From positions 1-64,000 of IMG/VR virus record IMGVR_UViG_3300002097_000869: a stretch of DNA of 64,000 nt; one strand, 5' to 3'. Origin of the DNA: an uncultured virus (IMG/VR IMGVR_UViG_3300002097_000869) (lineage: Duplodnaviria; Heunggongvirae; Uroviricota; Caudoviricetes). How positions within the stretch are numbered: the first letter of the stretch is position 1; every line of letters starts with the position of its first letter. The position numbers were made by a program, and so were the translations under genes. Shown piece after piece: positions 42,084 to 64,000 of the stretch. The notes under the pieces were generated by a model. The model searched no databases, was not told the origin of the DNA, and was given only the letters and a program-made list of their open reading frames with translations.

Positions 42084-43122
42084 AAAGAAAGAAGCAACAG
42101 AAACTGTAGATATAGTTGAAGAAACCAAGAAGAATAAAAACAGTGCATTAGATTTAGCGTTTAATCAGATAAATAAAAAGCACGGTAGTGTTCTAAAATG
42201 GCTTAGTGATGTTCCCTCCGGTTACGAATTTATTTCTACTGGGTCTATTTCTATGGATCATGCTTTGGGAGGAGGTTTTCCTAGGGGTCGTATGATAGAA
42301 ATATTTGGGGAGGAGTCTACAGGAAAGAGTACTGTGGCACTAGGTGCCTCAGCTTGTGCAAATAGAATGGGCTTGAAGGTTCTTTACATAGATTGTGAAA
42401 GGGCCATAGATAGAAAATTGGTAGCCGGTTATGGAGTTGATCCTTCTATGTTTTTACTAGACAATGTTTCTTTGTCTATGGAAGAACATTTTGATGTTGT
42501 ATATGGATTATTGGGCACCGGTGAGATAGGGATGGTGGTTGTAGATAGTGTCCCTAGTCTTATACCAAAAGCTGAGCTTGCGGGTGACGCTGGGGATTCA
42601 CATGTAGGGTTGCAGGCTCGGTTTTTGAGCCAGGAGTGTCGCAGAATTGTTAATATGATAGGGGAGTCTAATACTCTGTTTATTTTCATAAATCAGCTGC
42701 GCGAAAAAGTAATGGCTTATGGTGATCCTAGAGTTACTCCTGGGGGTAAGGCTATAAAATTTTATAGCACTCATAGGGTTAGTGTTGATGGGAGTGGCAA
42801 AACCAAGAGTGCCAGAATATTAGATGACAAGGGTGTTCTTATAGGTCATAAAATGTCCTATCAGGTTGTAAAAAACAAAATTAGTGCTCCCTTTAGGTCT
42901 GGTTCTGTTGACTTAATTTATGGTAAAGGGTTTGATAAGACTTCCGAGTTGGTTGATTTGTCAACGGATTTAGGTATAATACAGCTTGGTGGGGCTTGGT
43001 ATACTATACCGGAGGTTGGAGAGAAAATACAGGGTCGTGACAGTGTAAAAGCCTATTTTGATAGTAATCCGGACTTTATGGCCCGAGTTGAGAAACAGAT
43101 CCGCGAAATGCTTGCCTTATGA
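42076..43122 (+). CDS. recA: RecA/UvsX recombinase
   Basis: ISTGSISMDHALGGGFPRGRMIEIFGEESTGKS (Walker A); VVVDSV; FINQLREK; TPGGKAIKFYS; VVKNKISAPF; GAWY. Confidence 0.95.
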   Translation: MGRKKEATETVDIVEETKKNKNSALDLAFNQINKKHGSVLKWLSDVPSGYEFISTGSISMDHALGGGFPRGRMIEIFGEESTGKSTVALGASACANRMGLKVLYIDCERAIDRKLVAGYGVDPSMFLLDNVSLSMEEHFDVVYGLLGTGEIGMVVVDSVPSLIPKAELAGDAGDSHVGLQARFLSQECRRIVNMIGESNTLFIFINQLREKVMAYGDPRVTPGGKAIKFYSTHRVSVDGSGKTKSARILDDKGVLIGHKMSYQVVKNKISAPFRSGSVDLIYGKGFDKTSELVDLSTDLGIIQLGGAWYTIPEVGEKIQGRDSVKAYFDSNPDFMARVEKQIREMLAL

Positions 43123-59175: not shown

Positions 59176-60216
59176 ATGAGAATTAAATTTTGTAATCCTA
59201 TAACTCCGGATTTAAAATTAGTTAATTCCTACCTAAAAGAAAGCTTTACTTCTGGGTATTTATCTAATTTTGGTCCTGCCTATACTGAATTGTGTAGGAA
59301 GTTTAAAGAAAATGTATTTAATCTAGGCCCAGATAGGGAAATATTATTGACATCTTCCGGTCACACTGCTCTTATGGCTGCTTATGCCGCTTTAGGGGTA
59401 AAAAGGCTATTGGTGCCGTCTTTTACATTTGAGGCTACTAGAGCGGCTGCTACTTTGCAGGGTATAGGTACCATAATAAAGGATGTTGATCCTATGTCGG
59501 GATGTTTTACCGTTGATATTATAAAATCTGTGGACCCCTCCACATATGATGCTATAGTGGTTGTTTGTGCTTTATCAACAATACCAGATTTGGATAGTAT
59601 ACAACGATATTGTAGGTCGATGGGAAAACGTATGATTATTGATGCCGCCCCAGCTTTTGGTACTAAGAATATTTATTATTATGGGGATGCTTTTTGCTTG
59701 TCTTTTCATGCTACGAAAACATTGCCGGCCGGGGAGGGTGGAGCGGTTATACTTAAATCAGATTACTACGATAAGGCTAGAAGTTTTATAAATTTTGGTT
59801 TCGATGACAAAAAAAATGTTTCTATGGTGGGCATGAATGCAAAGATTAGTGAGTATTCGTGTGCTGTTTTGCTGGCTCTTATTGAAAAAGTCAGGTTTGT
59901 TGTGGACAAGAGGCTAGAGAATTTACAGGTTTATCGTTCTTTTATTGACCATTTAATACCTCCTACTTGGGTTTATAACACTGTGTACCAAAGTCTACCA
60001 ATTTTTTTAGATAGCTCAGAAAAAGTTGGTCCTATAAGGAAAAGGTTGTCGGAGGTTGGAGTAGACACCCTACAATATTACTCCCCACTAGACCCTGGTT
60101 CTCCTGTTTCTGCTTCCCTTTATAGCAGAAATATAAATATTCCTATACACCAAGGTGTAAGTATAGAGGATATAGGTTTTATTTGTTCTGTAATTTTAGA
60201 TGGGGGTTTAGAATGA
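59176..60216 (+). CDS. DegT/DnrJ/EryC1/StrS PLP-dependent sugar aminotransferase (VioA-like)
   Basis: SNFGP; SSGHTAL; PSFTFEAT; IIDAAPAFG; LSFHATKTLPAGEGGA; GMNAKISE; NIPIH. Confidence 0.9.
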   Translation: MRIKFCNPITPDLKLVNSYLKESFTSGYLSNFGPAYTELCRKFKENVFNLGPDREILLTSSGHTALMAAYAALGVKRLLVPSFTFEATRAAATLQGIGTIIKDVDPMSGCFTVDIIKSVDPSTYDAIVVVCALSTIPDLDSIQRYCRSMGKRMIIDAAPAFGTKNIYYYGDAFCLSFHATKTLPAGEGGAVILKSDYYDKARSFINFGFDDKKNVSMVGMNAKISEYSCAVLLALIEKVRFVVDKRLENLQVYRSFIDHLIPPTWVYNTVYQSLPIFLDSSEKVGPIRKRLSEVGVDTLQYYSPLDPGSPVSASLYSRNINIPIHQGVSIEDIGFICSVILDGGLE

Positions 60217-61472
60217 AGGACCTGCTAATTTTTGTTCCGTTAGATACTTTTGCGAAGGCACAATATGAGTTTCTTCCATTAGGTCCATTATATTTGTCTT
60301 CGTATTTAAGTAGGGCAGGATTTGAAGTAGATGTTGTTCATGGCTTAGTTTCAGATATAAAGCCAGGGTATAAATACTACGGGCTTTCTGCGTCTACTGC
60401 TCAGTATATAATGATAAAAGAAGCTCTTTCTTATATTAGGGAAATACAGTTGGGGGCGGTTGTTGTGGCAGGGGGGCCCCATTTTAATGCAGGGCAGTGT
60501 GTAGAGGAGGCTCGTGGTGACGGATGGGACCATATAGTGGTCGGTGATGGTGAGGTGGCCTTGTTAGATATTATGTCTAATAAGGTTTCTAGGACTGACC
60601 TTGTAATATATGGCACCCCTATTTTAAACGTTGACGAGGTTCCTTTCCCCGACTACGATAAATTAGACATACATAAGTATAATTTTCCTTTAAAAGATGG
60701 ATTAAAATGTGTAAATATTATAACTTCTAGAGGATGCCCCTTTAAGTGTGCTTTTTGTAGCACTTCCAATAAGAAGCTAAGGCAAAGGTCAGCAGATAAC
60801 GTTTTGGAAGAGGTAGACCTATTAATAAATAAGTATGGTTTTGATAGTCTTATGTTTGTTGATGACACAATGTCGATAAACTCTAAAAGATACTACTCAA
60901 TACTGTCTGGTTTGGAGGAGTTTGACTTAAAATGGCGTTCTTATGCTAGAACTACTACTATAACCTATGAAGGCCTAGAAAGAATGAAGAGGTCTGGGTG
61001 TATAGAGGCAGGACCTGGCATAGAATCCGGAAATCAGGATATTTTGGATATGATAGGAAAAGGGACAAACGTTGAGTCAAATATTGCCTGGTGTAGGCGG
61101 TGTGAGGAAACAGGTATAACCTGTACACCCTCAATCATAATAGGTTTACCAAATGAGTCTTATAGTACTATTAATGATGCACTAGTTTTTATGGAGAGGG
61201 CTAAGACTAGTGCCTTTGCATATAATATGCTTATGCCTTTTCCTGACTCTCCTATTTTACAAAATTATGATTACTGGAAAGATTATGTAACGGTATACCC
61301 TTATACGTGGGAAGATTGTGTTACTAAATCTAAGAAAATAACCAAGTGTTTTATTTCTACCCCGTACCTGACAAGGGAACAGATATTGGAAGAGTACTAT
61401 AAAAATTATGGTCGTTTTGCTGAAATCACAGGGTTTGACCCTAGAAAAAGGGGCACTAGAAAAGATGATTAG
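60213..61472 (+). CDS. B12-binding radical SAM enzyme (class B methyltransferase-like)
   Basis: PLGPLYLSSYL; VAGGPH; GDGE; TSRGCPFKCAFC (CxxxCxxC); FVDD; GIESGNQDILDMIGKG. ATGA overlap with the upstream stop supports start 60213. Confidence 0.88.
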   Translation: MKDLLIFVPLDTFAKAQYEFLPLGPLYLSSYLSRAGFEVDVVHGLVSDIKPGYKYYGLSASTAQYIMIKEALSYIREIQLGAVVVAGGPHFNAGQCVEEARGDGWDHIVVGDGEVALLDIMSNKVSRTDLVIYGTPILNVDEVPFPDYDKLDIHKYNFPLKDGLKCVNIITSRGCPFKCAFCSTSNKKLRQRSADNVLEEVDLLINKYGFDSLMFVDDTMSINSKRYYSILSGLEEFDLKWRSYARTTTITYEGLERMKRSGCIEAGPGIESGNQDILDMIGKGTNVESNIAWCRRCEETGITCTPSIIIGLPNESYSTINDALVFMERAKTSAFAYNMLMPFPDSPILQNYDYWKDYVTVYPYTWEDCVTKSKKITKCFISTPYLTREQILEEYYKNYGRFAEITGFDPRKRGTRKDD

Positions 61473-62076
61473 AACATATACACAGGATTGGTTTGATAGG
61501 TGTATACCTTCTTGGACAAAATATCTTGATAAATATAAGGGAAAGGAAAACCTTAGGTTTCTAGAAGTTGGAAGTTATGAGGGGCGTTCCACTTGTTGGT
61601 TGTTGGACAATATTCTTACACATTTATCATCTAAAATAAAGTGTTTTGATTTGTTTGAGGGTTGTTCTTCTCAGGGGGAGTGGTCTAAAGAACTCTACGA
61701 TAGGTATAATATGAGTGAGGTTTTCAGGAACTTCATTAGTAATGTTTCTTCTTATGGTGACCGTGTTGAATATAGGGTAGGGGTTTCTCAAGAACTCTTA
61801 CGTGAACTAGGGCATTCTCCCTTGTTTGATTTTATATATATAGATGGTTCCCATATAGCTTGTGACGTTCTTGAAGATTCCGTTCTTGCTTTTAGGCTTC
61901 TTAAGCCCAACGGTATAATGATATTGGATGACTATACCTGGGAATTTTTTGAGGAACCTTTACGCCATCCTAAAATGGGAATAGATGCTTTTCTTACTAT
62001 TTTTCATGGTCAATTTGATGTGTTGTTAAAAGACAGACAGGTTATATTAAGAAAGACAGGAATAAAAGAAGAGTAA
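61465..62076 (+). CDS. Class I SAM-dependent methyltransferase (Methyltransf_24-like)
   Basis: FLEVGSYEGRST; FDFIYIDGSH; LLKPNGIMILDDY.W; PKMGIDAFL. Confidence 0.85.
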   Translation: MIRTYTQDWFDRCIPSWTKYLDKYKGKENLRFLEVGSYEGRSTCWLLDNILTHLSSKIKCFDLFEGCSSQGEWSKELYDRYNMSEVFRNFISNVSSYGDRVEYRVGVSQELLRELGHSPLFDFIYIDGSHIACDVLEDSVLAFRLLKPNGIMILDDYTWEFFEEPLRHPKMGIDAFLTIFHGQFDVLLKDRQVILRKTGIKEE

Positions 62077-62315
62077 GCAACCCCACGCCTAAGGGCGGGG
62101 GCTTTCGAGTCCTTGCTTACTAGGGAACAATTCCAAAAAAGGAGTCGTTAATCGTTGAGTAGAAGAAATACATACACACCTACGGATGCTCCTCAAGTTC
62201 GTAGCAACTGTGACGCTGAATTAAAAACCCCTAGGGGTAGGGGTGGTGTTCAGCGTTTAAAAACTCTACCCAACCGTCCCGATGAGGATCTAATCTTAGC
62301 TTCGGCTAAGAGACA
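62053..62315 (+). ncRNA. IscB omegaRNA: 5' flank-derived guide (about 62053-62072) plus structured scaffold from 62073
   Basis: Directly upstream of iscB. GTAAGCAA...TTGCTTAC closing stem; CTACGGA...TTCGTAG; ACGCTGAA...TTCAGCGT; TCTTAGC-TTCG-GCTAAGA hairpin; CCTC/GAGG possible pseudoknot pairing. Confidence 0.75.
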
Positions 62316-63569
62316 GAACTTGCGAGTCTCTGTCTATGTCTTAAACCAGCGAAGTCAGCCATTGATGCCAACAACACCAAGAAAAGCTGAGAAGCTATTG
62401 AAGGAGGGAAAGGCTATAGTTGTTAAGCGAGCGCCTTTCACTATTCAGTTGACCTATTCTACGGGAGAGAACAAACAGCCCATCAGGCTAGGGGTAGATA
62501 GTGGTTTCGTACACGTAGGATTATCAGCAGTTTCAAAGAAACAAGAACTTTACTCTGCCGAGGTTCAACTACGAATCGATATAGTGAATTTATTATCGGA
62601 ACGTAGGTCTTATAGGAGAAATCGTAGAAATAGAAAGACTCGCTATCGTCAAGCTCGTTTCCTTAATCGAGGTATAAAAAAAGGCTGGCGGGCTCCTTCT
62701 ATTCAGCACAAATTGGATAGCCATATTAGGTTGGTAAACAAGGTTAAGCAAATCTTACCCATTACTGAGGTGGTGGTAGAGGTAGCCTCGTTTGATATTC
62801 AGAAGATAAAGAACCCAGAGATAAGTGGTAAACAGTATCAAGAGGGGGAACAAAAGGACTTTTGGAACACCAGAGAATACATCCTTCATAGAGATGACCA
62901 TAAGTGCTGCCATTGTAAGGGTAAATCAAAGGACCCCATTCTTAGTGTTCACCATTTGGAATCTAGGAAGACTGGTGGTGATAAACCAGCTAATTTGATA
63001 ACGCTGTGTAAGACGTGCCACGATGATTACCATGGTGGAAAAATTGAATTGAAAGCGAAACCTTCCAAAGGGTTCAAAGCTGAAGTTTTTATGACAATGG
63101 TACGATGGCGCTTAGTAGAACAGTTGCAATGTAGGTACATCTATGGCTATGTCACCAAACAAGCTAGGGTATTGTTAGGCTTGCCTAAGAGCCATATCAA
63201 CGACGCATTTGTAATCGTGAGTTCAGGGGCGTGTCCTAGAAGCCAAACCTACTTTATTAAGCAGGTTAGAAAGCAAAATCGTAAGCTCTTTAAGGGACTA
63301 CATAGTGGAATAAGAAACACAGCAACTCGTTATATCCAAGGTTTTCAACGGTATGATAAAGTACTATGGAAGGGACAGGAGTGTTTTGTGTTTGGTAGAC
63401 GAACCACGGGTTACTTTGACCTGAGATTATTAGACGGCACCAAAGTCCATACTTCAGCTAAGGCTAAGGACTGTGTTAGACTAGAAAGCGGTAAAACGTT
63501 ACTAACCCAAATAAGGAGCAGCGCTTCCTCCCCATGGTTAAAACCAAGGGTTTCCGCGCTGGAGATTCA
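62073..63569 (-). mobile_element. Non-autonomous IS200/IS605-family IscB element (ends read on the - strand; target TCAT, = ATGA on +)
   Basis: On the - strand: target TCAT | LE TGAATCTCCAGCGCG-GAAA (+16..+19)-hairpin CCCTTGGTT-TT-AACCATGGG; RE AAAG-CCCCCGCCCTTAGGCGTGGGG-TTGC-TTAC. The guide/cleavage pairs GAAA/TCAT and AAAG/TTAC follow the IS608 pairing rule. Confidence 0.85.
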
Positions 63570-63573
63570 ATGA
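62320..63573 (+). CDS. iscB: RNA-guided endonuclease IscB (PLMP, split RuvC, Arg-rich bridge helix, HNH); start TTG 62320 or in-frame TTG 62155
   Basis: VYVLNQRSQPLMPT; LGVDSG (RuvC-I); RRSYRRNRRNRKTRYRQARFLNR; VVVEVASFD (RuvC-II); CCHC...VHHL...NLITLCKTCHDDYH (HNH); KSHINDA (RuvC-III). Confidence 0.95.
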   Translation: MRVSVYVLNQRSQPLMPTTPRKAEKLLKEGKAIVVKRAPFTIQLTYSTGENKQPIRLGVDSGFVHVGLSAVSKKQELYSAEVQLRIDIVNLLSERRSYRRNRRNRKTRYRQARFLNRGIKKGWRAPSIQHKLDSHIRLVNKVKQILPITEVVVEVASFDIQKIKNPEISGKQYQEGEQKDFWNTREYILHRDDHKCCHCKGKSKDPILSVHHLESRKTGGDKPANLITLCKTCHDDYHGGKIELKAKPSKGFKAEVFMTMVRWRLVEQLQCRYIYGYVTKQARVLLGLPKSHINDAFVIVSSGACPRSQTYFIKQVRKQNRKLFKGLHSGIRNTATRYIQGFQRYDKVLWKGQECFVFGRRTTGYFDLRLLDGTKVHTSAKAKDCVRLESGKTLLTQIRSSASSPWLKPRVSALEIQ

Positions 63574-64000
63574 CTGCTTTAGCTATAGTAGGAGCAGGGG
63601 GCCATGGTAGAGAGGTTTTATTATATTCTCAAGGGGTGCATGATTATAAATTTGAGGACGTATTTTTTCTTGACGATAATGAGAAACTAATAGGTTCTTA
63701 TGTTTGTGATGCTTTGGTATTAGGTACAATAGAGGGGACCGTTGAAAGGCTGGATCCAGAAGATACCCTTTTTGTATGTGCCGTGGGTTCCCCTTATTTA
63801 CGTATGGCCTTTGTTAACAGAGTACTCGCTGTGTGGGGCGACAGGGCTAAGTTCGCAAACATAGTGCATAGTAGTATTTTTTTATCGAAGTTTGTAAGTT
63901 TGGGTGTCGGGAGTATGGTTTGTCCTGGTACCTTAGTGACTACCAATGTAAAGATAGGTAACCATGTGAGTGTAAATTTGAATTGCACTCTAAGTCACGA
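63570..64000 (+). CDS. NeuD/PglD/VioB-family sugar N/O-acetyltransferase, 3'-truncated by the window edge (not in the ORF track)
   Basis: My translation: MTALAIVGAGGHGREV...FFLDD...VCAVGSPYLR...FANIVHSS...LGVGSMVCPGTLVTTNVKIGNHVSVNLNCTLSH (hexapeptide repeats). Confidence 0.88.
   Translation, partial: MTALAIVGAGGHGREVLLYSQGVHDYKFEDVFFLDDNEKLIGSYVCDALVLGTIEGTVERLDPEDTLFVCAVGSPYLRMAFVNRVLAVWGDRAKFANIVHSSIFLSKFVSLGVGSMVCPGTLVTTNVKIGNHVSVNLNCTLSH

Follow-up and report, generated by a model that had tools for sequence, protein, structure and literature searches.

The 64,000-nucleotide stretch analysed here (the window) forms the start of a 133,010-base record of an uncultured virus (IMG/VR IMGVR_UViG_3300002097_000869). 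Between a methyltransferase gene and an acetyltransferase gene it carries what is apparently an intact IscB/omega-RNA insertion element, an ordinary member of a known family. The element appears to have entered an ATGA in which the stop codon of one gene overlapped the start codon of the next, and its relatives sit preferentially in front of start codons. We consider it probable that this is a non-autonomous element with an N|ATGA target (the bar marking the point of insertion), and that its silent fit is a by-product of a target that contains ATG and of the survival of harmless insertions. The observation of a silent fit, made in a first-pass annotation of the window, is correct and the position of the element is instructive; the adaptive generalization that the annotation built on it is weakly supported.

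The element and its junctions

Identification of the element as IscB, proposed in the first pass, is borne out by matches to the HEARO RNA family and to the RRXRR and HNH protein domains (Table 1). Position 1 of the HEARO model falls on 62073, and the scaffold lies directly upstream of iscB on the same strand, with the probable iscB start 26 nt after it. We placed that start at TTG 62320 because the long open reading frame (ORF) beginning at 62155 crosses the RNA gene and the RRXRR domain begins at residue 60. The protein contains RRXRR (PF14239, E 1.6e-65) and HNH (PF01844, E 5.4e-06) domains and matches solved IscB structures with E values of 6e-43 to 4e-41. In an alignment with four relatives it keeps the GVDSG, HH and NDAF columns, which we take to be catalytic. 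The final 51 bases of the element comprise an imperfect hairpin followed by an 8-nt linker. No match to a Y1 transposase (PF01797) was found in the 133-kb record, and the copy was for this reason filed as non-autonomous.

At the left junction the methyltransferase gene reads GAA (62068-62070), GAG (62071-62073), TAA (62074-62076), the last G and the TAA being the first four bases of the element. At the right junction the iscB stop overlaps the acetyltransferase start (ATG 63570-63572), and GGAG stands 5 nt before that ATG. These readings agree with the first-pass description. The left flank (...AAGA) shows no target duplication, and ATGA follows directly after the element. Reading frames entering from the left all close within 51 nt (62073-62123), on a TAA at element positions 2-4, a TAA at 18-20 and a TAG at 49-51.

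In the uninterrupted sequence, an ATGA would have combined the stop of the methyltransferase gene with the start of the acetyltransferase gene. Insertion would then have exchanged the final A of the last methyltransferase codon for the G of the element, a synonymous change, and the element would have supplied the TAA, so that the upstream protein would remain unchanged. This reconstruction draws support from element boundaries in the family, from the C termini of homologous methyltransferases and from a second insertion of the same kind, L107, described below. The boundaries rest on the Rfam start, on comparison of the three copies in this genome and on 84 relatives, the last two of which also set the 3' end. 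Homologous methyltransferases of 71% and 67% identity terminate at most one residue away from the end of the window protein, which fits an unchanged C terminus. The downstream ORF has 219 codons in the genome record, and a PglD_N match that begins at residue 4 when translation starts at 63570 makes that ATG a sensible start. An ATG within the terminal hairpin (window 63534-63572) is in frame with the acetyltransferase gene and, if used, would give a 12-residue N-terminal extension (MVKTKGFRAGDS).

The genome contains three copies at three unrelated sites, two of them full and one a 257-bp remnant with a weakly defined 5' end (14.8 bits). All three are followed directly by ATGA or ATGG (together ATGR), and that ATG opens the downstream gene. 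We call an ATG start-like if, with the flanks joined, it opens at least 60 codons and an in-frame stop lies no more than 30 codons upstream. Start-like sites make up 121 of the 2,183 ATGR sites in this genome, yet all three copies precede the ATG of a gene (p=1.7e-4). Only copy 1, in the window, leaves its upstream neighbour unaltered. Copy 2 joins the RNase HII frame in a different phase and changes the tail from ...IKPNG (reconstructed) to ...IKPSKQPHA, and the remnant is placed after a native stop and a GAGGA motif. Linker bases and the fourth target base, compared by eye, showed no simple covariation. Shine-Dalgarno (SD)-like motifs precede 54 of 138 start-like ATGs in this phage and 9% of all ATGs; given this excess, the GGAG of copy 1 could matter.

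Insertion in front of start codons

An alignment of five IscB proteins was used for searching, and 80 loci from IMG/VR, 80 from species-representative genomes and two further IscB loci were collected. The 162 loci formed 107 clusters, and Rfam was run on one representative per cluster. HEARO 5' ends were obtained for 102 loci, counting the window, copy 2 and L331. The 3' end was taken as the ATGR after the conserved terminal hairpin, by an automatic rule at 59 loci and by picks among listed candidates at 25, for a total of 84 placed loci. Choosing hairpins near the iscB stop by stability alone often led to unrelated ones, and a motif-filtered rule replaced this criterion.

Among the 84 placed relatives, the flank opens with ATGA at 72 loci and with ATGG at 12. 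Support for the motif comes from its regular spacing after the hairpin and from the published target. The first-pass statement that ATGA is a known target-adjacent motif (TAM) agrees with the target or TAM given for this IscB group in passages of Kapitonov 2016 (PMC4810608) and Meers 2023 (10.1101/2023.03.14.532601).

Roughly 60% of insertion sites are start-like: 17/23 for the viral contigs, 27/54 for the genomes and 12/17 for the copies of one Duodenibacillus genome. The other ATGR sites of these flanks supply the comparison, at 75/930, 130/1846 and 14/190, or 7-8% (p values of 1.6e-14, 2.3e-17 and 1.1e-10). The subset placed fully automatically gave 32/53. An SD-like motif occupies positions -17 to -4 of the left flank at 15/26, 23/56 and 6/17 sites of the three sets, against 13%, 12% and 5% of control sites, which indicates that the element typically lies between the ribosome-binding site of a gene and its ATG. 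Of the 17 Duodenibacillus copies, 16 open a long ORF.

This start-codon habit is most simply attributed to an ATG-containing target, a need for sense transcription and the loss of disruptive insertions. With such a target, the survival of only harmless, transcribed, same-strand insertions in a dense genome would lead to a silent fit with no device built for overlaps. Target motif and survival of harmless insertions explain most of the pattern, and the evidence does not show design for overlaps.

Several points weigh against this account. The first concerns the empty allele, a search for which the first-pass annotation had proposed: none was found in phage records, IMG/VR, JGI metagenome contigs or the contigs of four sequencing runs. 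A search of INPHARED phages gave matches inside iscB only, in 3 records at 69-71% identity. In IMG/VR, the methyltransferase retrieved one identical, occupied contig, the next match being at most 44% identical. JGI metagenomes yielded an identical, occupied contig of 247,608 bp and three relatives of 67-71%, none an empty allele; one of these (L250) has a different downstream gene, and the other two contigs end at or before the gene end. In the contigs of the four runs no joint spanned 62073-63569, the sole joints coming from other copies; these contigs are uninformative on the absence of an empty allele, as contigs drop rare variants.

The remaining points concern the survey. That 84/84 placed loci have ATGR holds by construction, the placing rule having looked for ATGR. 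Eighteen of the 102 loci were left unplaced, including L191, L212, L220 and L228, which have a hairpin and no ATGR at the expected distance, and three loci with a transposase gene after iscB. L101, with two ATGA sites 10 nt apart of which only the second opens a long ORF, was also left unplaced to avoid bias. Gene starts were judged by ORF proxies, with no gene caller. The loci are partly dependent (dereplicated at 90% identity over 60% length), and three Duodenibacillus loci are in two sets. About 40% of sites are not start-like, making the habit a strong preference and no rule. The 16/17 Duodenibacillus copies that open long ORFs presumably exceed what intergenic ATGA sites would give, by a rough estimate of our own.

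Stop/start overlaps and translation

The first-pass annotation held that the pairing of a GTAA terminus with an ATGA target makes any in-frame ATGA overlap a safe harbour. One part of this stands: insertion of a GTAA terminus into an in-frame ATGA overlap is necessarily silent for the upstream protein, and L107 is a second, independent case. The claim of generality did not fare as well. GTAA is a minority terminus (6 of 84 elements, against 71 with GTCA), its stop is in frame in only two of the six, and copy 2 alters its upstream tail. Five ATGA stop/start overlaps in the whole record are unoccupied, including those at 43119, 48508 and 60213, which the annotation had listed and which are real stop/start overlaps. 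Enrichment of insertions at such overlaps, which the annotation had put forward for checking, was not established (12/56 start-like sites against 26/219 in the background, odds ratio 2.0, p=0.08). An overlap site was taken to be one in which joining the flanks yields an ATGA stop/start overlap and the upstream ORF has at least 50 codons; 19 of 101 sites qualified. The family signal is one of start codons in general, with stop/start overlaps as one subclass.

GTCA-type elements in overlap sites lengthen the upstream protein. A 5-residue tail, ending on a stop in the first hairpin loop, is found at 10 of the 19 sites, and tails range from 2 to 54 residues. The upstream protein is unchanged at two of the 19, the window copy and L107, both with GTAA termini. 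L107, in a 196,895-bp viral contig, has ends near-identical to those of copy 1 and an IscB that is 55% identical, and it repeats the whole arrangement, with TAA in frame and the iscB TGA on the downstream ATG. The same contig holds two IscB elements (1255-2768 and 4031 onward) that flank a short gene block, one GTAA-type and silent in an ATGA overlap, the other GTCA-type and beginning 16 nt after a stop.

These features can be given a broader adaptive reading, which we put forward tentatively and as the lesser possibility: ATGR-target IscB/HEARO elements would be adapted, 'translation-transparent' operon passengers between ribosome-binding site and ATG. Incoming frames would be closed, at once by GTAA or by a conserved stop after the 5-residue tail with GTCA. 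Ribosomes would be handed over, in several lineages, by an SD motif of the element and an iscB stop on the ATG, and the guide would be a conserved ribosome-binding-site or gene-end region that relatives can hardly mutate away. Overlap of the iscB stop with the target is seen in 16 of 84 elements, and in 4 the two abut (TGATG); in most others iscB ends about 30 nt upstream, within the hairpin loop. The terminal linker (last 17 to 4 nt) bears an SD-like motif in 18/84 relatives. The two traits co-occur in a few lineages, namely the window lineage, L107 and a Methanoperedens-type group.

A narrower version, in which selection shaped the ends of this lineage (GTAA, GGAG and the iscB stop) to restore the stop codon, the ribosome-binding site and coupling, with in-frame overlaps as preferred sites, is in our judgment unlikely. 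The window and L107 represent two independent silent insertions in different phages with near-identical ends despite their divergent IscB proteins, and GTAA termini are commoner in viral contigs (5/26) than in genomes (1/58). An SD-like linker is present in 8/16 elements whose iscB stop overlaps the target and in 10/68 others. The roughly 2-fold excess of overlaps at start-like insertion sites points the same way, but with the marginal p value given above. GTAA elements, moreover, are no more often found in overlaps than others (2/6 versus 17/90 in the comparison as run, Fisher p=0.34), and four of the six, copy 2 with its altered RNase HII tail among them, make no use of an in-frame TAA. In the omega RNA, the GTAA bases form part of the first stem, pairing with its 3' arm, and are therefore constrained for other reasons. 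Finally, GTAA and SD-bearing cases are confined to two or three lineages, and the five overlaps of the record stand empty.

Position of the cut

Empty sites reported in passages of Kapitonov 2016 (PMC4810608) verify N|ATGA for elements with 5'-GTCA ... CG|ATGA ends, and GT|GA or GT|GG for similar-looking families. For the phage copy we infer an N|ATGA cut. Under a GT|GA cut the element would instead span 62075-63571, the empty site would be GTGA, the acetyltransferase gene would natively start on a GTG overlapping the methyltransferase TGA, and the element would supply the ATG. Such a cut has precedent in ISC families whose termini look the same (GTCA ... ATGG) and whose empty sites are GTGG or GTGA (PMC4810608). 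At this junction the two models differ by a single base, A or G, which is both the third position of the last Glu codon and the first base of the start codon; the methyltransferase protein is unchanged under both. Four lines of evidence nonetheless make a GT|GA cut improbable. For 5'-GTCA/CG|ATGA ends, the published empty sites assign GT to the transposon and ATGA to the target (PMC4810608). Six related species without the element all have ATG at the orthologous start of one Duodenibacillus site (6/6), which favours N|ATGA for that lineage. The TTCAT of Geobacillus stearothermophilus IscB on the transposase strand, as given in published passages, is in our reading ATGAA on the iscB strand. Lastly, the first G and U take part in base pairs inside the scaffold in the Rfam model.

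A model for expression and movement

With N|ATGA as the target, a working scheme can be proposed. The omega RNA would be made by read-through transcription from the methyltransferase gene, with the last 16 nt of that gene as guide, a length that we assume. IscB with its omega RNA would cut element-free junctions that combine a guide match with ATGA, and repair would copy the element in. In this way the element could spread between co-infecting phages without a transposase, and new sites would require a Y1 transposase in trans. The overlapping TGA/ATG, together with the GGAG 5 nt before the ATG, would probably couple translation of the acetyltransferase to that of iscB. Between 61300 and 63800, no terminator-like sites were found on the + strand and promoter-like sites showed no excess.

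The scheme follows the layout described in passages of Meers 2023 (10.1101/2023.03.14.532601), on which our guide placement also rests. There the transposon end upstream of iscB gives rise to the scaffold, and the DNA just outside the element serves as guide. Transcription has to enter from beyond the element, and genes upstream tend to lie in the same orientation. At the element-free donor joint, the nuclease cuts beside the target motif of the transposase itself, and tnpA is nearby for about 1.5% of iscB genes.

It is very unlikely that the element is instead fixed, with transposition lost and IscB serving as a phage homing or exclusion nuclease against co-infecting relatives without the insertion. 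The failure to find a Y1 transposase in the record would suit this reading, as would the occupied junction being bridged by contigs in three runs (X1, X6, X10) and present in two further assemblies; transposase-free homing of this kind is discussed for plasmids and phages in passages of a 2026 review. Three copies at unrelated sites, one a deletion derivative with intact ends, point to transposition, however, and since the record is estimated to cover 58% of the genome, a transposase could be encoded in the rest of it or by the host.

Genomic setting and relatives

The same stretch is also present in a 52-kb IMG/VR contig, a 247,608-base metagenome contig, and groundwater and soil metagenome runs. 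On the + strand, window positions 59176-64000 hold a sugar-modification cluster with a DegT aminotransferase, a B12-binding radical SAM enzyme, a Methyltransf_24 methyltransferase and a PglD-like acetyltransferase. The iscB frame is the fourth of five + strand genes, between the last two of these. The methyltransferase start (ATG 61465) itself overlaps the stop of the radical SAM gene. The cluster seems to belong to a jumbo phage, and the best explanation of the whole is a large groundwater phage as host of the element, with an N|ATGA target within the sugar-modification gene cluster as its site.

Table 1. Features of the element, its neighbours and its further copies (positions in the window or, beyond 64,000, in the genome record)
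Feature	Position	Strand	Basis or remark
Methyltransferase gene (Methyltransf_24)	61465..62076	+	ORF, Pfam; stop TAA 62074-62076 within the first four bases of the element
Predicted omega-RNA guide segment, 16 nt, host DNA (last methyltransferase codons)	62057..62072	+	Position 5' of HEARO scaffold
Non-autonomous IscB/omega-RNA element (HEARO; ISC type, IS200/IS605 superfamily), 1,497 bp	62073..63569	+	5' end from Rfam; 3' end by comparison
Omega-RNA scaffold (HEARO, RF02033)	62073..62294	+	113.9 bits (gathering score 83), E 3.9e-24, model positions 1-211
iscB coding sequence, 417 aa	62320..63573	+	Probable TTG start; stop TGA 63571-63573
Subterminal imperfect hairpin, target-side transposon end	63519..63561	+	DNA fold -9.6 kcal/mol; same architecture in relatives
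GGAG in terminal linker of element	63561..63564	+	Sequence; followed by 5-nt spacer ATTCA and downstream ATG
ATGA: probable target/TAM, acetyltransferase start and iscB stop	63570..63573	+	Sequence
PglD-like acetyltransferase gene	63570..64000, continues past window end	+	Pfam PglD_N, residues 4-85
Copy 2, full, 79% identical	77803-79288		Between RNase HII gene and IMPDH/GMP-reductase gene
257-bp deletion derivative, both ends kept	121034-120778	-	In front of helicase-like gene

Relatives in the survey vary in completeness. L103 carries an IS200-type Y1 transposase gene (2349-2771; PF01797, E 3.9e-42) directly after iscB, as do L200 and L210, and such a locus is an autonomous relative of the element. 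One Duodenibacillus genome (G007, L333-L351) gave 21 HEARO matches; 19 regions were examined and both ends placed in 17. Several of its copies are internal deletion derivatives of 596-1,417 bp with both ends kept, like the 257-bp phage remnant. L331, the third copy in the phage of L088/L089, has a HEARO match of 129.8 bits and a broken iscB frame (207 codons), consistent with a decaying copy. The iscB frame extends to 757 codons in L209 (1387-3657) and 641 in L092 (1321-3243), which may be fused or read-through forms. At L191 (about 2755) the canonical terminal hairpin and linker are followed at the target position by ACGA, not ATGA, and the next ATG is 9 nt downstream.

Comparison with known systems

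The element type, its RNA, target and hairpins, its non-autonomy and the orientation bias are all published already. Placement of IscB elements at start codons or ribosome-binding sites was not found in the literature searched, and the terms 'start codon' and 'initiation codon' are absent from the main text of Kapitonov 2016 (PMC4810608). The present case provides a worked example, with numbers, of a 1.5-kb selfish element inside a tight phage operon whose neighbouring proteins are unaltered, and relatives in phages, bacteria and archaea sit preferentially between ribosome-binding site and start codon. Were the ends tuned for translational hand-over, this would bear on the persistence of such elements in operons and on the placement of IscB-type cargo without polar effects.

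The closest likeness is to the ISC2/ISC1 transposons with N|ATGA targets (ISC1-1_MA, ISC2-1_HM and ISC2-1_MS) in passages of Kapitonov, Makarova and Koonin 2016 (PMC4810608). These share with the window copy a single iscB gene, a length of about 1.5 kb, a 5'-GT(C/A)A terminus, a subterminal hairpin and, mostly, a lack of their own transposase; insertion directly 5' of ATGA without target duplication is probably common to both as well. They differ in having a GTCA terminus, whereas the window copy resides in a phage and has GTAA. The ISGst IscB of Geobacillus stearothermophilus (10.1101/2023.03.14.532601) likewise has a HEARO-type omega RNA upstream of iscB, a guide derived from the flank, a need for outside transcription and a same-orientation bias, and its TAM, TTCAT on the transposase strand, matches ATGA(A). 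Its activity is experimental, whereas the window element is known from sequence alone; placement at start codons is not described in the Meers 2023 passages. By sequence comparison, the OgeuIscB-omega RNA complex (PDB 7xht, 7utn, 8csz) has a homologous protein (E 2e-41), the same RuvC-HNH layout and the same RNA family, but a published TAM of NWRRNA in place of ATGR. Beyond the IscB family, the free-standing homing endonuclease genes of T-even phages, as portrayed in passages on intronless homing (PMC13565253), are similarly nuclease genes wedged between conserved phage genes, and they resemble the window element in the expected cutting of the element-free allele of a co-infecting relative, followed by copying in. 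The window element differs from them in belonging to another protein family, in using a guide RNA with a 4-base motif and in splitting its target by its own presence.

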